Source of the DNA: Acidimicrobiia bacterium
GTDB taxonomy: Bacteria; Actinomycetota; Acidimicrobiia; Spongiisociales; ZC4RG35
DNA: 48,867 nucleotides
Assembly (NCBI GenBank): GCA_009837815.1
Contig: VXSV01000047.1
Location: 1-48,867, forward strand
Direction: 5' to 3'
This document shows, in pieces, positions 24,630-36,342 of the stretch. Numbering within the stretch: position 1 is the stretch's first letter; each line of letters opens with the position of its first letter. A program made the position numbers and the translations under genes. The notes below the pieces were generated by a model, which worked only from the letters and a program-made list of their open reading frames with translations, was not told the DNA's origin and made no database searches.

Positions 24630-26147
24630 ATGGCAGAGATGACCATCACCGCCCACGACATAACCGAGGCGCTCAGAAAGAGCCTGGACGACTGGAACCC
24701 TTCCATATCCCGCGAGACGGTGGGCCATGTGTCTTCCATAGCCGACGGTGTGGCCAAGGTGAAGGGCCTTCCCCTGGCCATGTCCTCGGAACTGCTGGAA
24801 TTCGAGGGAGGGTTGCTGGGGGTGGTGCTGGACCTGGAGGAGGACTCGATCGGCGTGGTGATGATGGGAGACTCCAACCACGTGGAGGAGGGCGACCCGG
24901 TGCGCCAGACCAGCCGGGTGCTGGAGATCGGGGTGGGAGATGACCTGCTGGGGCGGGTGATCGATCCGCTGGGCAATCCCATCGATGGCAAGGGGCCGAT
25001 CACCACCACCGCCCGCCGCCGCCTGGAGGTACAGGCGCCCACGGTGGTGCAGCGCCGACCCGTCCACGAGCCGCTCCAGACCGGGACCAAGGCGATCGAC
25101 GCCATGACCCCGGTGGGACGCGGGCAGCGGGAATTGATCATCGGCGACCGTCAGACCGGAAAGACGGCTCTGGTGGTGGACACCATCATCAACCAGAAGG
25201 CCGAAGGGGTCAAGTGCGTCTATGTGGCGATAGGGCAGAAGGCGTCCACGGTGGCCGAGGTGGTGGCCTCCCTCACCGAACACGGCGCCATGGACTACAC
25301 GGTGGTGGTGAACGCCTCGGCCGCCGCGCCTCCGGCTCTCCAGATGTACGCGCCCTATGCGGGGTCGGCCATCGGCCAGCACTGGATGTACAACGGCGAG
25401 CACTCCCTGGTGATCTTCGACGACCTCTCCAAGCAGGCGGTGGCGTACCGGGAGATCGCCCTCCTGCTGCGCCGTCCTCCAGGCCGGGAAGCCTATCCGG
25501 GGGACGTGTTCTATCTGCACAGCCGACTCCTGGAGCGCTGCGCCAAGCTGTCCGACGAGTTGGGCGGCGGATCGATGACCGGACTCCCCATCGTGGAGAC
25601 CAAGGCGGGGGACGTCTCGGCCTTCATCCCCACCAACGTGATCTCCATCACCGACGGCCAGATCTACCTGGAGACCGATCTCTTCTTTTCGGGGGTCCGT
25701 CCGGCCATCAACGCCGGCATCTCCGTCTCCCGGGTGGGTGGCGCCGCCCAGGTGGGCGCCATGAAGAAGGTGGCGGGTCCCATCCGCATCAACCTGGCCC
25801 AGTATCGGGAGTTGGAGGCCTTCGCCCAGTTCGGGTCGGAACTCGACTCCACTTCGCAGGCCCAGCTGGAGCGAGGCGCCCGGGTGGTCGAGGTGCTCAA
25901 GCAGCCCCAGTTCCGTCCCTTCCAGGTGGAGGAGCAGGTGGTCACCCTGTACGCGGTGACCAACGGGTTCATGGACGAGACGCCGGTGTCGGAGATCTCC
26001 CGTTTCGAGGAGGAACTGACCGAGCACATGCGGCGCCGCCACGGACACTTCCTGCGTTCCATTGTCGAAACCGGTTCGCTTCCTGACGTGGAGACTCTCA
26101 ACTCGGTCCTGAAGGAATTCGCGGAGAGATTCCGCTCAGGAGACTGA
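24630..26147 (+). CDS. atpA: F0F1 ATP synthase subunit alpha
   Basis: GDRQTGKT and [21 protein letters not shown] motifs. Confidence 0.98.
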
Positions 26148-28478
<2,331 letters not shown>

Positions 28479-28480
28479 CC

Positions 28481-28816
28481 GTGGCCAGTCCCTTCAATGT
28501 CGACGTGGTCTCGCCGGAAGGGACCCTCTGGTCGGGCGACGCCGAGTTCCTGGTGGCCCGCACCACCGAGGGCGAGATCGGGATCCTGGCCGGGCACGAG
28601 CCACTGATGGCCGCCCTGTCGGCAGGTCCGGTGCTCATCGACCATGACGGCGACCAGAGGACCACCATCGCCGTTCACGGAGGTTTCATGCAGGTGGTGG
28701 AAAACCGCGTGACCCTGTTGACCGACCGCGCCCGGATCACCGCCGGCGACCGCGCCGAGGCCGCAGCAGAGGCGCTGAAACTCAGCGAAGGCGACCCCCT
28801 CGACTTCGAGGAGTAG
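28481..28816 (+). CDS. atpC: F0F1 ATP synthase subunit epsilon
   Basis: VDVVSPEG..EGEIGILAGHEP..HGGFMQV; GTG 28481. Confidence 0.93.
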   Translation: MASPFNVDVVSPEGTLWSGDAEFLVARTTEGEIGILAGHEPLMAALSAGPVLIDHDGDQRTTIAVHGGFMQVVENRVTLLTDRARITAGDRAEAAAEALKLSEGDPLDFEE

Positions 28817-29927: not shown

Positions 29928-29955
29928 GGTAACGCGCCGGGGCGCTGAGCGTCTT
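29928..29955 (+). promoter_or_regulatory. Putative ECF sigma-dependent promoter
   Basis: GGTAAC-N16-CGTCTT, the usual ECF AAC/CGT layout, just upstream of the 29982 gene. Confidence 0.55.
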
Positions 29956-29981: not shown

Positions 29982-30848
29982 ATGGACAGACCGGACCTCT
30001 CCGGAGTAGTTCTCAGAGCTATAGCCAAATCTTATCGGGACGAGATGGGTCCCGCCCGTGCCGAGCAATTGGCTTCCCGGGCGATAGCCCGGGCGGGGGA
30101 ACGATCCCGAAGGCGTCAGCGCATAGGGGTGCTGGCGTCGAGCGTGGCCCTGGCGGCGTCCCTGACAGTGGTGGGAGTGGCGGTGCTGACCGGCGGTTCG
30201 GATTCGGCGACTCCGCTGGATTCTGAGTCCGACGTGGTGGCGTCGGGTCCGGCAGACGCCGACGGGATGAACGTTCCGACCCTCACCAGGGAAGGGCTGA
30301 TGGAGGCCCTCGACCTGATCGACCAGCAGCGGGAACTGGAGGCAGCCGAGATGGTGGTCACGGCGCTCTCCTACATCGCCGAGTCGATGGCCGGCGCCGA
30401 CGTGGCTGCGTCCGGAGCTGTCACCGAGGCCTTTGCGCCGCCCGCGTCACCTCCTGAAGGAGCGCAGACCCCGGCCCCTTCCGGCTCGGTTTCGGGCGCT
30501 CCCTCACCTGATGAGGACATCTACGCCTACGGTCCTCAGCCATCCGGGCAGGGGGAGCCTTCGGACGGCCCCATATACGAGACGCCTGAGTCCCACCCCG
30601 CAGAACAGGTGGCAGAGACCGGCACTCTCTTGAACGTGACCGCCGATCCGGCGGCTATTGAAGAGTTGGGCCAGATGCTAAGGCTCGAGGTGGAGGAGTT
30701 GCTGGGTGTGCTGGACGTCTCCGATTCCGATGCGATCAACGAAGCGGTTGAGGAAGTGGAGAAGGCCGTGGCGCCGATCCTCGAATATCATTCTCAGGAC
30801 GAACCGACGATTCTTGTCCCTACCAGCGGTGATGACGAGGAAGAATGA
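29982..30848 (+). CDS. Hypothetical single-pass membrane protein (anti-sigma-like topology)
   Basis: About 47-aa N-terminus ending RSRRRQR, one TM (IGVLASSVALAASLTVVGVAVL), then an acidic Pro-rich C-terminal region; GAAGGA before the ATG. Confidence 0.75.
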   Translation: MDRPDLSGVVLRAIAKSYRDEMGPARAEQLASRAIARAGERSRRRQRIGVLASSVALAASLTVVGVAVLTGGSDSATPLDSESDVVASGPADADGMNVPTLTREGLMEALDLIDQQRELEAAEMVVTALSYIAESMAGADVAASGAVTEAFAPPASPPEGAQTPAPSGSVSGAPSPDEDIYAYGPQPSGQGEPSDGPIYETPESHPAEQVAETGTLLNVTADPAAIEELGQMLRLEVEELLGVLDVSDSDAINEAVEEVEKAVAPILEYHSQDEPTILVPTSGDDEEE

Positions 30849-30952
30849 CCCGCATCCCGGCTGACAGGCGGGAACGGCTTCGGTATCTGAACTGCCGTAC
30901 GCCCTTTCAAATTACCCGATCCTGAAGACTCAAAGCTATACCGTGGGCTGAA

Positions 30953-31933
30953 ATGGCGTCCGCGGACTCCTCCCAGTGGCCTCCCTCGCTCTCCGAGGCC
31001 ACCGCCGCGCGGGACGGTGACCAGGCGGCCCTTGCATCCATCCTCACCAAAGGGCTGCCCCGGTTGGTCGCCTTCTTCCGCGGCCAGGGTCTGGCTTTGG
31101 CCGACGCCGAGGATGTGGCGAGCGACGCGTGCGAGTCCCTGGTCCGTTCCATCGGCCGCCTGCGTTCCCCCCAGGCTTTCGAGGCCTGGTTTTGGAGAAT
31201 CGCCCGCTCCAAGTTCAACGACCACCTGCGAAGACGCCACCGGCCCCTCCCCGCTCCCGACCTGGAGACCAGCCGGGTGCTTCCCGAAGAGCACGCCGTG
31301 GACCAAGAGGACTTCCGGAGGGTGCGGCTCGCATTCGCGCGTCTCGGCCCACGGGACCGTGAACTGCTGTGGCTGCGCGAGGTGGAAGGTCTCTCCCATG
31401 CGGAGATCGGGGGCAGGGTATTCAAGCGTGAGGGGTCGGTGAGGGTGGCGATGCTCCGGGCTCGCCGCCGGTTCGAACAGTTCTTGACACAAGAGCAGGA
31501 GAGACCGCACCCCGCCGAGTCGTATCAGGCCCCGGTTGTGCTGTTCATGGCCGCCAACGACTCCGACTGCTCCCAGATGGCCGCCGCCCTGCTGCGCGAG
31601 ATGGCCGCCGGTCCGGTGAGAGTGTTCAATGGAGGGTCGTCCCCGGCTTCGCGGGTGGACCCGAGGGCGGTGGCTGTCCTGGCCGAGCGGGGAATAGACA
31701 TCGCCGAGGCCCATCCTGTCCGGTTGAGCGCCGCCTTGATCGAAGCGGCGGAGGTCGTGGTGGACCTGGGCGAGGAGAATCCGCCGGTCGTCACCGGCAA
31801 GCGTCTCTTCCGTTGGCGGGTGGGATCACCGGCGGGGAAGAGCCTCGAGGAAATGAGAAGAACGCGGGACGAAATCGAGCGACAAGTGTGGGAATTGATG
31901 ATCGCCCTGAACATCGAACCGCGAAAATTATGA
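30953..31933 (+). CDS. ECF sigma factor fused to a degenerate ArsC/LMW-PTP domain
   Basis: Sigma2 (DAEDV..AWFWRIAR..DHLRR) and sigma4 (LGPRDRELL..EGLSHAEI), then VLFM..SQMAAALL..AVAVLAERGIDI..PAGKSLEEMRRTRDEIERQV. Confidence 0.88.
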   Translation: MASADSSQWPPSLSEATAARDGDQAALASILTKGLPRLVAFFRGQGLALADAEDVASDACESLVRSIGRLRSPQAFEAWFWRIARSKFNDHLRRRHRPLPAPDLETSRVLPEEHAVDQEDFRRVRLAFARLGPRDRELLWLREVEGLSHAEIGGRVFKREGSVRVAMLRARRRFEQFLTQEQERPHPAESYQAPVVLFMAANDSDCSQMAAALLREMAAGPVRVFNGGSSPASRVDPRAVAVLAERGIDIAEAHPVRLSAALIEAAEVVVDLGEENPPVVTGKRLFRWRVGSPAGKSLEEMRRTRDEIERQVWELMIALNIEPRKL

Positions 31934-31942
31934 AATAGGGGG

Positions 31943-31971
31943 TTGCCGTTTTATGGTTTTAGGGGCATAGT
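31943..31971 (+). promoter_or_regulatory. Putative housekeeping sigma promoter for the downstream sigma gene
   Basis: TTGCCG-N17-CATAGT in an AT-rich intergenic stretch. Confidence 0.55.
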
Positions 31972-32034
31972 CATAGGAAGGATCACTGTTTCTCCTATGA
32001 GACACGAAACAGACAAGCGATAAGAAACTCGGCT

Positions 32035-33033
32035 GTGGTATCACGATCAACCCTAAAGAAGACCGCCGCGGACGGTAGATCCGACCGGCGGGTGCGCATG
32101 ACCGACCAGATAACCGACGAGCGCGGTCGGCTCACCTCCGACCTGGTTGCACAGTACCTGTCGGCCATCAGTGAGACCGACCTGTTGGACGCCCAGCAGG
32201 AGGTGGAGTTGGCACAGCTCATGGAGGCAGGTCGTCAGGCAGAGGACAAGCTGGAAGAGGGGGAGTACGAGACCTCCGCCGCAAAGAGGCGCCTGGAGAG
32301 GCAGAAGCGGCGAGGGGCGGCGGCGAAGAACCAGTTCGTGCAGGCCAACCTGCGGCTGGTGGTGCACAACGCCCGCCGCTACCAGGGGGTGAGGGGAATT
32401 GACTTCTTGGACCTGGTGCAGGAAGGAAACCTGGGTCTGATCCGGGCGGTGGAGAAATTCGACTGGCGCAAGGGATTCAAGTTCTCAACCTACGCCACCT
32501 GGTGGATAAAGCAGGCCATTACCCGCGCCATAGCCGACAAGTCCCGCACAGTCAGGATCCCCGCCCATCTTCACGACACCCTGGCCAAGGTGCGGCTGGC
32601 GCAGGGAATCCTGAAGGGAAAGCTCGGGCGTCTGCCCAATCCCGATGAGATATCCCGGGAGACCGGAATACGCAAAGACCATGTGGAGCAGGCTCTGGTG
32701 CTGTCTGACACCGTTTCCCTCGAGGAGCCGGTGGGAGAGGACGGAGCGCAGCGGGGCGACTTTATCGAGGACGGCGACGCCGATGATCCCGAGGCGATCG
32801 CCGAGGCCACCAGCGTGGCGATCGCCATGCGCAACTCCATCAAGAAGCTCCCCGAGCGGGAGCGAAAGATCATGGAACTGCGGTACGGATTGGAGGACGG
32901 CATCCCCAAGGGACTGGATGAGATCGGCAGCCACTTCCAGTTGACCCGGGAACGGATCCGCCAGTTGGAGAAGTTGGCGCTGTGCCGACTGCGCCATCCC
33001 TCCTACGGGATACGCCAACAGGACCTCATCTAG
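32035..33033 (+). CDS. RpoD/SigA-family sigma-70 factor lacking region 1.1 (group 2-like)
   Basis: [40 protein letters not shown] and TRERIRQLE motifs. Start may be ATG 32098. Confidence 0.93.
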
Positions 33034-33141
33034 GGAATCCCCGGGAGGATGGGACTGGCAAGCCTCCGCTTTTAGTCCCGATATCTGCTACTCGTCCTGA
33101 CCACACTGGAGTTGCCTGGTATTGTTGGCGGCGAGTCGCTC

Positions 33142-33345
33142 ATGGCATCCACAGAAACCACCCCGTCTCCTTCAGAGATCCTGACCATGGATAAGGTGTT
33201 GGAGCGGGCGTGGAGAGGCAAAGAAAGGCTAATGAAGGCCGGGTTGCCTACGACCCGCGATAACGCCCGCAGGCTGGCGTGGAAGCGAGCGAGGGGAATT
33301 GACACGACTGTGGAAGAGCGACGTCGTGCCCTTGACACCCGCTGA
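33142..33345 (+). CDS. Small basic hypothetical protein (67 aa)
   Basis: MASTETTPSP..ERRRALDTR; overlaps the start of the next gene; TATTGT upstream. Confidence 0.55.
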   Translation: MASTETTPSPSEILTMDKVLERAWRGKERLMKAGLPTTRDNARRLAWKRARGIDTTVEERRRALDTR

Positions 33346-33938
33346 ACTCCGAGCAAGAGCGCGCAGTGCGGAACCAGGCTCTCCAGAATGGATCCTCTAT
33401 TCAGCGGCCGCTTTTGATGCAGTGGTGGAACATCCTTTGATCCTTGTCGGTGGTGGCGCACAAGTGGTCCATACCCGACAGCACCGACCCACGGATATAG
33501 ATTTGGTTGGAAGAATCACGCAACGGGACTTTGATGCTCTCGCGGCCGCCGGATATGAGAAGCAGGGGCGACACTGGATATACGATTGGAAAAGGGGTGG
33601 AAGGGGTGGACGTGGAGGTGCCTGCTACTGTGCTTATGGGCGAAGACCCTCCTGAGGTCGTTGATGTGGGCGGCAACCATTTGCGAGTCATATCGTTGCA
33701 TGATCTAATGATGGACCGTCTCGTTCACGCGACGGACCGCACCGAAGTTACCTGGGACGAAGTGATAGAACTGGCCGAAGCAACGGGCGACCGGGTCAAC
33801 TGGGACGCGGTGCGAGCCCGATGCATGGTGAAACGGAATGACGACATCGGTCTGCATATCCTTCCGCAGATATTGGATGAGGTGCTAGCCGAACTAACAG
33901 CCATCAGCCAGCGGAAAAGGGACAACCCGGGCTTTTAG
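33326..33938 (+). pseudogene. Frameshifted nucleotidyltransferase-fold protein (DUF6036/AbiEii-like)
   Basis: Frame 1 holds LILVGGGA..PTDIDLV..GRHW and frame 2 holds VEVP..LRVISLHDLMMDRL. Removing one base at AAAAGGGG (33590-33597) joins them into about 203 aa. Confidence 0.75.
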
Positions 33939-33958
33939 CTGGACGTAGGTTTCTAAGG

Positions 33959-35329
33959 TTGAATACACCGGCTTTGTTAGGAGTAGGTACCAGACTCCGG
34001 TCCATCACCGGAATTGTCCTGATGGCGGGGGTCATGCTCTTGATGGCTGCTCCGGCGGTCGGCCAGTCCTCGGAGACGGTCGGTACCAGGTTGCGCTACC
34101 AGGACGAGCACGGGCAGCGGACGCCGGTGGAGGGAGTGGTCATCTCGGTCGCCGCCGTCGACGGGTCCGAGGTCGGCGCCGGCCACACCGACTCCGACGG
34201 GGTCTTCGAAGCGCCGGTGCCCGGACCCGGTGTGTACCTGGTGTCGATCGACGTCGACACGCTCCCGGCGGGGATCCGGCTGCGGGAGCCGGACCGCACC
34301 ACGGTCGAGGTCGAGGTGCTGGAGTCCCGGGACGGAAGGGCGATCTTCTCCCTGATCAGCGGGAATGCGGAGCCGATGGAGGAGAGCGGCGGGGTCTCGG
34401 TGCGAAGGGTGGCGCAACTCACCACCGAAGGGGTGAAGCTGGGTTTGTTCCTGGGGATGGCCGCCATCGGCCTCTCCCTGGTATTCGGCACCACCGGTCT
34501 GGTCAACTTCGCCCACGGCGAGATGGTCACATGGGGAATGCTCTCCGCATACTTTTTCAACTACTTCGGCCTGGCGGGGATCTTCGGGTTCATGGCCGGA
34601 TGGTGGCCGCCGCTCGGCGAGGGGGTCAACCTCATCTTCGCGGCGATCCTGGCGGTGATAGTCGGCGGGACCACCGGTTTTGTCATGGACCGATGGGTGT
34701 TCGGTCCCCTCCGCATCCGGGGCGTCAGCCTGATCGCCCAGATGGTGGTGACCATCGGGCTCTCCATCCTGGCTCGATACATCTTTCTCTTCATCTTCGG
34801 GGGGAACCTCAGGTTCTTCAGGGACTACTCGGCCCAGAGCGCTCTGCAGATCTGGATCATCGAGATAACCCCCAAGGACCTGATCACCGTGGTCCTGTCG
34901 GTGCTGATCCTGATCGGGGTGGGGTTCTTCCTTCAGCTGACCCAAACCGGAAAGGCCATGCGGGCCGTGGCGGACAACCGGGACCTGGCGGAGTCATCGG
35001 GGATCAACGTCCAGCGGGTCATCAGAATCGTGTGGGTGGGAGCGGGATCGCTGGCCGGGCTGGGAGGAGTGTTCATCGGGCTGGCCGAGCAGTTGAGCTG
35101 GCTGATCGGCTTCCGTATGCTGCTCCTGATCTTCGCCGGGGTGGTCCTGGGGGGACTGGGCACCGCCTACGGCGCCCTGCTGGGATGCCTGCTGGTGGGC
35201 ATCGGCATCCAGCTCTCCACCCTGTTCATCCCGGTTGAACTGAAGAACATCGGCGCCCTGGTGGTGCTGGCCCTGGTGTTGGTGGTGCGCCCCCAGGGCC
35301 TTCTCGGCAGGAGGGAGCGGTTCGGATAG
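33959..35329 (+). CDS. Branched-chain amino acid ABC transporter permease (LivH-type) with an N-terminal extracytoplasmic extension
   Basis: AIGLSLVFGTTGLVNFAHGE and GKAMRAVADN motifs. Confidence 0.92.
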   Translation: MNTPALLGVGTRLRSITGIVLMAGVMLLMAAPAVGQSSETVGTRLRYQDEHGQRTPVEGVVISVAAVDGSEVGAGHTDSDGVFEAPVPGPGVYLVSIDVDTLPAGIRLREPDRTTVEVEVLESRDGRAIFSLISGNAEPMEESGGVSVRRVAQLTTEGVKLGLFLGMAAIGLSLVFGTTGLVNFAHGEMVTWGMLSAYFFNYFGLAGIFGFMAGWWPPLGEGVNLIFAAILAVIVGGTTGFVMDRWVFGPLRIRGVSLIAQMVVTIGLSILARYIFLFIFGGNLRFFRDYSAQSALQIWIIEITPKDLITVVLSVLILIGVGFFLQLTQTGKAMRAVADNRDLAESSGINVQRVIRIVWVGAGSLAGLGGVFIGLAEQLSWLIGFRMLLLIFAGVVLGGLGTAYGALLGCLLVGIGIQLSTLFIPVELKNIGALVVLALVLVVRPQGLLGRRERFG

Positions 35330-35331
35330 CC

Positions 35332-36342
35332 ATGGCGCTGGCGGCGATCGACTGGGGATTCATCCTGATCCAGACGGTGGAGACATCGCTCGGTCTGGAG
35401 GCGGCGGTGTACGCACTGGCGGCGGTGGGGCTCAATGTCCATTTCGGCTACGCGGGGTTGCTCAACTTCGGACAGGTGGGATTCGTGGCGATGGGGGCCT
35501 ACGGCATGGGACTGTCGGTGACCCTCTGGAATCTGAACCCCTTCCTGGCCCTGGTGGTGGGAATGGGATTCGCCGCCGCATTCGCGCTCATTCTCGGGGT
35601 CCCGACCCTGCGCCTCCGGGGCGACTACCTTGCGATAGTCACCATCGCCGCGGCGGAGATCGTCCGTCTCCTGGCCCGTTCCACCACCCTGGGGGAGATC
35701 ACCCGCGGGGCGGAGGGTCTTCACGGCTTTATAGGGCCCTTCCGGGAGCTGAATCCATTCGATCCGGGCGCCGAGTACGGGATCGGTCCCGTGCAGTTCG
35801 GCGGCAACCAGTTCTTTGCCATCGTTGTGGGTTGGGCACTCACCGCAGTGGCGCTGGTGGTCATCCGGCAGTTGATGCGCAGCCCTTGGGGACGGGTGGT
35901 CAAGGCCATCCGAGAGGACGAGGACGCCGCCCGGGCGCTGGGCAAGAACGCATACTGGTACAAGCTGCAGGCCCTCATCCTGGGCGGGGTGATCGGGGGA
36001 CTGGCGGGCATGGTGCAAGCGCTGGGGAAGGCCACCATCCAGCCCGACTCCTTCGTGCCGGCCTACACCTTCTTTTTCTGGACGGTGCTGATCCTGGGCG
36101 GGGTGGGACGGATCTGGTCTCCGGTGGTGGGCGCCATGATCTTCTGGGCGATGCTCACTTTCTTCCAGGGAACCCTGACCGCCATGGTGAACGAGGGGCT
36201 GATCCCCACCGCCCTGATGGACACCAGCCAGGTGAGCCAGATCAGGTTCATGCTGGTGGGGGTGGGGTTGGCGTTGTTGATGGTCTTCCGACCGCAGGGC
36301 ATCTTCGGATCTCGAGAGGAGATGATGCTGGATGTCAGGTAG
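35332..36342 (+). CDS. Branched-chain amino acid ABC transporter permease (LivM-type)
   Basis: GYAGLLNFG, LRLRGDYLAIVT, AIREDEDAA and RPQGIFG motifs. Confidence 0.93.
   Translation: MALAAIDWGFILIQTVETSLGLEAAVYALAAVGLNVHFGYAGLLNFGQVGFVAMGAYGMGLSVTLWNLNPFLALVVGMGFAAAFALILGVPTLRLRGDYLAIVTIAAAEIVRLLARSTTLGEITRGAEGLHGFIGPFRELNPFDPGAEYGIGPVQFGGNQFFAIVVGWALTAVALVVIRQLMRSPWGRVVKAIREDEDAARALGKNAYWYKLQALILGGVIGGLAGMVQALGKATIQPDSFVPAYTFFFWTVLILGGVGRIWSPVVGAMIFWAMLTFFQGTLTAMVNEGLIPTALMDTSQVSQIRFMLVGVGLALLMVFRPQGIFGSREEMMLDVR

Follow-up and report, generated by a model that had tools for sequence, protein, structure and literature searches.

The window analysed here is a stretch of 48,867 nt, positions 1 to 48,867 of contig VXSV01000047.1, from the assembly GCA_009837815.1 of an Acidimicrobiia bacterium. 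At positions 30953-31933 of its forward strand lies a gene whose product is a sigma factor of the extracytoplasmic function (ECF) type fused to a second domain, which has the fold of the arsenate reductase ArsC and of low molecular weight protein tyrosine phosphatases (LMW-PTP) and has lost its catalytic residues. This second domain is referred to below as the added domain, and residues are numbered in the fusion protein. The gene follows that of a membrane protein, the probable anti-sigma factor of the fused sigma, and precedes a second sigma factor gene. The parts of the fusion gene are listed with the basis of each assignment, where dN/dS is the ratio of nonsynonymous to synonymous substitution rates and pLDDT the predicted local distance difference test of AlphaFold2.

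30953..31933, + strand: fusion gene, ECF sigma core and dead ArsC-fold domain (326 aa, stop codon included)
31061..31243, + strand: sigma region 2, residues 37-97 (Pfam PF04542, E 2.6e-10)
31316..31471, + strand: sigma region 4, residues 122-173 (Pfam PF08281, E 3.3e-9)
31484..31537, + strand: variable linker from sigma4 to the added domain, residues 178-195 (dN/dS, pLDDT)
31538..31930, + strand: ArsC/LMW-PTP-fold pseudoenzyme domain, residues 196-326 (Pfam LMWPc, Foldseek)
31550-31573, + strand: P-loop remnant, residues 200-207 (alignment to canonical domains)

Domains of the fusion protein and loss of the catalytic residues

The N-terminal part of the protein is an ECF sigma factor. Pfam Sigma70_r2 matched residues 37-97 with 40.4 bits (cut-off 24) and Sigma70_r4_2 matched residues 122-173 with 36.7 bits (cut-off 25.7), and the NCBIfam ECF model TIGR02937 scored 75.5 bits against a cut-off of 42.9. 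Pfam gave no match to sigma region 3 in the fusion protein. With regions 2 and 4 present and regions 1.1 and 3 absent, the protein is an ECF (group 4) member of the sigma-70 family. The closest NCBIfam subfamily for the sigma part is ShbA (NF007230), at 69.9 bits and under the cut-off of 209.

The C-terminal part is aligned over the entire LMWPc profile of Pfam (positions 1-144 of 144) at residues 196-316, with 35.2 bits against a cut-off of 23.2. In the AlphaFold2 model the block pLDDT of the added domain is 82-93, and Foldseek superimposed the modelled domain on the pI258 ArsC structure 1rxe with a template modelling (TM) score of 0.87 (target-normalised) and a root mean square deviation of 1.7 Å over 129 columns. 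The TM score was 0.85 on Cg_ArsC2 (3rh0), and comparison with the chain sequence of 3t38 gave an E value of 7e-17. The full-length profile match and the fold match place the added domain in the LMWPc superfamily (PF01451). It is below every NCBIfam ArsC equivalog cut-off tested: its best NCBIfam match, the arsenate reductase model TIGR02689, reached 52.4 bits, far under the cut-off of 157.6, and the values were 32.2 against 174.3 for TIGR02691 and 42.6 against 215 for NF010053.

The catalytic positions were mapped by alignment to solved ArsC chains (3t38, 3rh0 and 2myu) and to 153 canonical LMWPc domains, and variation across the fused clade was scored on 24 sequences. The nucleophilic Cys, found in 98% of the canonical domains, is replaced by A200 in the window. 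The Asn (97%), Gly (93%) and Arg (93%) of the P-loop have become D203, D205 and C206, and the Ser (99%) is kept as S207. The stretch that carries the resolving Cys residues, canonically M-G-C-G-D-x-C-P, reads L-G-E-E-N-P-P, and the general acid Asp (93%) is replaced by S292, which is Ser in all 24 fused sequences. Framework residues of the ArsC fold are retained in the same alignment with canonical domains. The motifs AANDSDCS, LGEENPP and GSP, which the sequence-only reading of this DNA had taken as signs of a catalytically dead ArsC/LMW-PTP domain, were all read correctly for the window, and that proposal was borne out by replacements at the catalytic positions in 24/24 relatives.

The former P-loop has diverged within the clade. 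Position 200 is Ala in 7 sequences, Glu in 13, Gln in 3 and Ser in 1; position 206 is Cys in 16, Arg in 4, Ser in 2, His in 1 and Asn in 1. Five of the eight P-loop positions are variable and D203 and S207 alone are invariant, position 204 being exclusively Ser or Ala; positions 199-202, 205 and 206 all vary. Asp is found at position 205 in 17/24 sequences and Glu at each of positions 274 and 275 in 18/24. A Cys at position 277 occurs in only one of the 24, and seven have no Cys anywhere in the added domain. Conservation of the NDSDC motif had been named as a check on the early interpretation, and the outcome is mixed: D203 is invariant in 24/24, but C206 is present in only 16/24 and Asp205 in 17/24. 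The fusion clade has neither the C-x5-R-(S/T) motif of ArsC and LMW phosphatases, with its nucleophilic Cys and Arg, nor the two resolving Cys (GCGDxC) and the acid Asp of thioredoxin-coupled ArsC. Judged from its residues, the added domain cannot reduce arsenate or remove phosphate, and would not be an enzyme of a known kind.

Distribution, selection and origins of the two halves

The same architecture, of 326-328 aa, was found in 23 further protein clusters with 67-89% identity. Within the contig collection the fusion occurs in 12 species genomes, all of them Acidimicrobiia metagenome-assembled genomes and several labelled as sponge-derived bins. A whole-genome search with the added domain (E <= 1e-35) recovered it in 17/17 genomes of the window's genus and in 0/184 genomes from 37 other genera of the same family. 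None of the 17 genus genomes interrupts the fusion frame, which spans 326-355 aa without truncation, and in every relative the frame passes through the linker without a stop codon. Moreover, a 2.25-kb stretch of the locus lies in one piece in contigs from other studies' runs, X4 with 6 differences and X7 with 33; the recorded holders of this stretch are all sponge metagenomes or coded organisms. Median dN/dS values, calculated by the Nei-Gojobori method for 78 pairs of 13 loci, were lowest in the sigma core (0.088, residues 1-185) and highest in the linker (0.305); the added domain had a value of 0.188, which points to purifying selection on it. A one-off fusion, an assembly artefact and decay of the domain had been named as outcomes that would undo the early interpretation. 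The open frame throughout the genus, the 23 further clusters, the contiguity in independent assemblies and the stop-free linker leave next to no probability for the first two, and likewise for a read-through of two separate genes; nothing was found in favour of any of these, and the fusion is conserved rather than decaying.

The combination was sought more widely. In a 201-genome sample of the order, genomes other than the window's own gave merely ordinary ArsC-like matches with at most 48% identity; this sample includes G196, a genome flagged as unpublished, on which no claim rests. No sigma domains were found outside the fused clade among the 42 matches of a region search with the added domain. 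The fused family accounts for only P0017 and two fragments among the best 150 matches from 1.84 billion representatives, and weaker fusions of sigma and LMWPc domains could be missed at that depth. Twenty long or two-stretch matches were scanned with Pfam: none had sigma domains, six combined an ArsR-type helix-turn-helix (HTH) with LMWPc and two combined MIP with LMWPc. The protein atlas returned only ordinary LMWPc clusters, all under 0.9. Homology between sigma4 and the Phosphatase-like_N domain, hinted at by long phmmer stretches, was considered and rejected, as BLASTP aligned the LMWPc part only.

The two halves have separate nearest relatives. Those of the sigma half are unfused ECF sigma factors of about 190 aa from Acidimicrobiia, with about 50% identity, and a member of this group was found in 2/5 same-family genomes searched (46-49% identity). 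Their neighbourhood is different, with genes for a transhydrogenase, a nitroreductase, a membrane protein, the ECF sigma factor, a TrmH-like methylase and an exonuclease. The window's genome (G000) has no unfused copy. Therefore the fused gene represents this ECF group within the genus, and it is the ortholog of the unfused genes, moved beside a group-2 sigma gene. Outside sigma factors, the added domain is closest (37-46% identity) to LMWPc proteins of Actinobacteria that also have a Phosphatase-like_N domain and keep intact CxxNxxRS and GCGDxC motifs; a free ArsC-like gene on contig C17 of the window's genome is 43% identical to the added domain. An actinobacterial thioredoxin-type ArsC domain would have been fused behind sigma4 in the ancestor that a single genus of sponge-associated Acidimicrobiia shares, and would then have lost all its catalytic residues while staying as a flexibly tethered pseudoenzyme module.

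Two features of the sigma half were recorded on the way. A W-P-P motif near the N-terminus (residues 9-11, within 30953-31000) is present in 23/24 fused sigmas, and its Trp in 28/29 unfused ones. Cys60 in sigma2 (31130) is found in 24/24 fused sequences and in 17/29 unfused relatives. Both are probably markers of the group. A C60-C206 redox pair was considered as a general mechanism and rejected, C60 occurring in 17/29 unfused relatives and C206 being absent in 8/24 fused ones.

The candidate anti-sigma factor, the promoter motif and neighbouring genes

The features that flank the fusion gene are the following.

29929..29955, + strand: ECF-type promoter motif, -35 GTAACG (29929-29934), 15-nt spacer, -10 CGTCTT (29950-29955), 27 nt upstream of the membrane-protein gene start
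29982..30848, + strand: 288-aa single-pass membrane protein, probable anti-sigma factor (position and complex model)
30912..30941, + strand: block TTACCC ... CTATAC just before the fusion gene, conserved in part across 13 aligned loci
32035..33033, + strand: 332-aa group-2 (SigB-like) sigma factor (Pfam regions 1.2, 2, 3 and 4)

The 288-aa protein consists of a helical cytoplasmic N-terminus (residues ~1-47), a hydrophobic helix (~48-72) and an acidic, divergent outer part. Its gene has a fixed place: in 13/13 fused loci the order is an oxidoreductase (- strand), the membrane protein (+), the fusion (+), the SigB-like 332-aa sigma factor (+) and a branched-chain amino-acid transporter. A homologous single-pass protein is encoded upstream in 8/8 unfused loci inspected; it lies directly upstream of the ECF gene in 7/8 contig loci and in G150, and about 2.4 kb from it in G026. 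The position at one locus (L034), where the listed frame runs to 409 aa, rests on two other comparisons. The 288-aa protein has no sequence match in Pfam, NCBIfam or the PDB and is in no known anti-sigma family. The outer part matches DUF5667 in 9/9 proteins of unfused relatives (L015-L034 and L088) and in 0/12 of the fused genus (L003-L014); a literature search found no mention of DUF5667.

To this candidate a structural model was added. The complex of the full-length fusion protein with residues 1-50 of the membrane protein reached a score of 0.79 (median of three runs), and the best of three controls reached 0.00. A score of this level was attained by 58/80 solved complexes and by 2/110 mismatched pairs, counts that apply approximately here, as our own alignments were used for the model. 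The runs share at least 78% of contacts and the pLDDT of the partner is at least 74. The modelled interface joins sigma residues 24-65 and 104-178 to partner residues 5-42, so that the partner peptide is predicted to lie between sigma2 and sigma4 as in the classic anti-sigma clamp. The upstream membrane protein, which the sequence-only reading had not picked out, is thus the probable anti-sigma factor of the fused sigma. It would hold the sigma inactive, its short cytoplasmic N-terminus clamping sigma2 and sigma4. Since the candidate also stands beside unfused ECF genes, the added domain would be an add-on to a sigma factor controlled by an anti-sigma factor and not a replacement for the latter. 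Gain of the ArsC-fold domain and an apparent remodelling of the outer sensor part fall in the same lineage, in which the cytoplasmic N-terminus is still conserved.

The hexamers GTAACG and CGTCTT are invariant in 13/13 fused loci and the spacer sequence between them varies. They hold AAC in the -35 and CGT in the -10 element, as expected of an autoregulated ECF promoter. The promoter that had been placed at 29928 is therefore real as a conserved ECF-type motif. The pattern GTAACG-N15-CGTCTT gave 25 matches across 16/17 genus genomes, compared to one for the reversed control. A related motif, GTAAC-N15-19-GACT/GCTA, occurs once in each of 9 unfused loci, 36-106 nt upstream of the homologous gene; this pattern was chosen after the sequences had been inspected. 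An autoregulated operon of anti-sigma and sigma factor is thereby suggested as the ancestral feature of the group, to which the ArsC-fold domain would be an addition. Once released, the sigma factor would drive transcription of the two-gene operon that encodes it, with GTAACG-N15-CGTCTT as the promoter.

Other signals were looked for around the operon. The block at 30912-30941 may be a second promoter, of the housekeeping type; a consensus scan found no sigma-70-type promoter there, and between the three genes such scans found neither a sigma-70 promoter nor a terminator on the + strand. A 216-nt contig from the sponge metatranscriptome library X20 is an exact match to positions 30681-30896, which cover the last part of the membrane-protein gene and the beginning of the spacer that precedes the fusion gene. 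It fits read-through transcription but may also be carried-over DNA, and it shows neither the start nor the level of a transcript. A second copy of the promoter motif, with a 16-nt spacer, lies outside the window on contig C101 of its genome (2360-2387, + strand; L105) and is found in 9/17 genus genomes (the other loci are L090, L092, L093, L098, L099, L104, L107 and L110). Downstream of it are about 65 conserved bases with two possible hairpins, for which RNAalifold gave 15 pairs, 3 of them with compensatory changes; beyond this stretch the genomes diverge, and contig C101 has a run of N about 220 bases further downstream. An Rfam search of both promoter loci found nothing relevant (one miRNA match, E 0.39). 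The second copy may drive a small RNA under the same sigma factor.

The SigB-like gene downstream encodes a protein whose best-covering NCBIfam match is SigB (NF005920), at 317.7 bits and below the cut-off of 464. It adjoins the fusion gene in 13/13 fused loci and in 0/21 unfused loci; its place is conserved, and it is by this position that it may belong to the system of the fused sigma. The conserved block before it (31938-31971) has the housekeeping-promoter form TTGCCG-17-CATAGT, and the ECF promoter motif, which was considered there, is absent. A second group-1/2-type sigma factor with region 3 is encoded on contig C42 of the window's genome, in which sigma region 2 is matched 7 times above the Pfam cut-off and 8 times at E <= 0.01. 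Between the SigB-like gene and a livH-like gene lies a stretch of about 0.9 kb (33034-33958) that is about 100 bases long in related loci. Neither of its two overlapping open reading frames (33299-33655 and 33507-33938) had a tblastn match in the 12 related loci, and the GC content drops in this part (0.598 over 32001-34000). The stretch resembles an insertion peculiar to the window's genome, possibly a broken gene. Further out the flanks are ordinary. Similarity between loci identifies ATP synthase genes at 24630-28816, among them a putative atpD at 27060-28478 (90-99% identity in relatives), and permeases of a branched-chain amino-acid ABC transporter at 33959-36342. No arsenic resistance genes stood out among the flanking neighbours examined.

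Role of the added domain and comparison with known systems

At fourteen positions of the added domain the residue is shared by 90% or more of the fused clade and is seldom seen in canonical domains. They include D203, S292, W313, E314, M316 and I321-R324, several of them being located on the last helix and an extra C-terminal tail. Such positions argue for a constraint beyond folding. In the full-length AlphaFold2 models each domain is folded, the predicted TM score (pTM) of the whole is 0.46 in both runs (with alignments of 69 and 24 rows), and the linker block of residues 181-190 has a pLDDT of 66. We favour, with about even confidence, a tethered protein-interaction or regulatory module that forms a second layer on a sigma factor controlled by an anti-sigma factor. 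The domain would act via protein contacts on its newly conserved surface (W313, E314 and I321-R324). The old active site would not be the working surface, and the domain would serve as a second control layer or as a handle for recruiting a partner.

The evidence also has to be read against other accounts. The degenerate, acidic P-loop pocket (D203, D205, E274 and E275, with or without C206) could bind a cation, a thiol or an oxidant and thereby change sigma activity, as the sequence-only reading had suggested. The fold around the pocket is retained, D203 and S207 are found in 24/24 sequences, and Asp at position 205 (17/24) and Glu at positions 274 and 275 (18/24 each) are frequent. However, positions 199-202, 205 and 206 vary, C206 is confined to 16/24 sequences, 7/24 domains are Cys-free and the Arg that holds the oxyanion is gone. 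The Asn and Ser at these P-loop positions are structural supports of the loop. They are 97% and 99% conserved in canonical domains too, and the invariance of D203 and S207 need not mean ligand binding. We therefore regard such a sensor as unlikely, and the results support neither thiol or redox signalling via the lone Cys nor a conserved sensing pocket, five of eight old P-loop positions being variable. A docked extension, by which the domain would pack on the sigma2-sigma4 linker, inhibit or activate the sigma factor as in ECF41 and ECF42, and take over the role of the anti-sigma factor, seems very unlikely. Fused C-terminal extensions are the second commonest mode of ECF regulation, with 19 groups, in the excerpts of PMC7826278, but according to the same excerpts such groups typically have no anti-sigma factor, whereas a conserved candidate here passes the binding model. 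Moreover, the pTM of 0.46 in two runs and the variable linker of low confidence fail to place the domain on the core, and the proposed docked, autoinhibitory domain was not supported.

The lack of predicted docking would also suit a passenger, that is, a dead ArsC fold kept for folding, solubility or stability and carrying no signal. The anti-sigma candidate alone could explain regulation, and the unfused relatives manage without the domain. Yet the domain is maintained at a dN/dS of 0.188 and without truncation in 17/17 genomes, and its 14 clade-specific positions, some of which form a cluster on the last helix and tail, suggest more constraint than folding alone would set; we consider this account quite unlikely. 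Several points weigh against the interaction module as well. No fixed docking of the added domain on the sigma core is predicted, which leaves a regulatory contact in cis unsupported, and in the complex model no residue from 190 onwards, and hence none of the added domain, touches the N-terminus of the anti-sigma candidate. The high complex score, whose calibration is approximate, may partly owe something to memory of solved sigma/anti-sigma complexes. Use of the 29929-29955 promoter by the fused sigma is suggested by position and ECF-like hexamers alone. The residues of the conserved surface may partly reflect shared ancestry, all 24 fused sequences coming from one genus, and the invariance of D203 and S207 would still allow the old pocket a function. 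A still broader proposal joins these strands to the favoured module: the domain would be a signal-input or partner-docking module and a new, pseudoenzyme-built class of ECF extension, whose arrival coincided with remodelling of the outer sensor; control would perhaps have shifted from an extracytoplasmic to a cytoplasmic cue, and the sigma factor may drive a small conserved RNA. We hold this joint proposal to be possible but doubtful.

Fused extensions of ECF sigma factors that have been described are of few types: SnoaL-like, tetratricopeptide repeat (TPR), Cys-rich, DUF1835 and transmembrane, as listed in excerpts of PMC7826278 and PMC8999054. The main texts of PMC7826278 and PMC7671368 name no phosphatase or arsenic-related ECF extension, although their supplements, where all ECF groups are listed, may differ; the main text of PMC8999054 mentions no phosphatase extension, and that of PMC7826278 mentions neither ShbA nor hrdB. 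A literature search found nothing that combines LMWPc with Sigma70. The sequence-only reading knew of no described ECF group with such an extension, and in the main texts searched none with an ArsC fold was found.

The nearest parallels are ECF41 (SnoaL-like), ECF42 (TPR) and ECF56, in which, as in the fusion, a domain of more than 100 residues lies behind sigma4 of a minimal sigma2-sigma4 protein (excerpts of PMC7826278 and PMC8999054). By the same excerpts, ECF41, ECF56 and related groups also carry a folded extension, SnoaL-like, and no simple peptide. The fusion differs from these groups in an extension type, ArsC/LMW-PTP, that is not named in the main texts searched. It occurs in a single genus, the other members of the wider ECF group having no such extension, and its locus holds a candidate anti-sigma factor, with no docking on the sigma core predicted. 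By these models the fused sigma does not seem to follow the ECF41/42-like mode, in which the extension contacts the core and there is no anti-sigma factor. SigG1-RsfG of Streptomyces tsukubaensis (ECF56) is likewise a system of an ECF sigma factor with a C-terminal extension and its partner RsfG, and the extension of SigG1 is SnoaL_2, unlike the ArsC fold found here (excerpts of PMC7730460).

On the side of the added domain, the thioredoxin-coupled ArsC enzymes (S. aureus pI258, 1rxe and 1ljl; C. glutamicum Cg_ArsC1', 3t38) have the same fold and framework residues. Unlike them, the added domain is not free-standing and has lost the nucleophilic Cys, the P-loop Arg (in the window), the pair of resolving Cys and the acid Asp. 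Fusions of ArsR and of Acr3 to ArsC have been described in Actinobacteria in the excerpts of PMC6514093, and the former, like the gene analysed here, join a transcription regulator to an LMWPc/ArsC domain in Actinomycetota. Proteins of the ArsR-HTH plus LMWPc type were also among our matches (P0152, P0203, P0223, P0235, P0245 and P0259). However, these fusions pair the domain with an ArsR-type HTH repressor or a channel and not with a sigma factor. P0152, the one fusion aligned, has two LMWPc domains and retains the CxxNxxRS loop in each, whereas the loop is lost in the window's domain. The ArsR-ArsC and Acr3-ArsC proteins sit in arsenic resistance systems, and no ars genes stood out among the annotated neighbours here.

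ECF sigma factors with fused extensions are one-protein signalling devices with a short list of types, to which an ArsC-fold pseudoenzyme would add one. The organisms are uncultured sponge symbionts of narrow range. Within that range the case lends itself well to study: the fusion has a single origin, in one genus, sister genera retain unfused orthologs, and a probable anti-sigma factor and a putative target promoter can be identified. The system could thus reveal what a sigma factor gains from a newly acquired pseudoenzyme domain.

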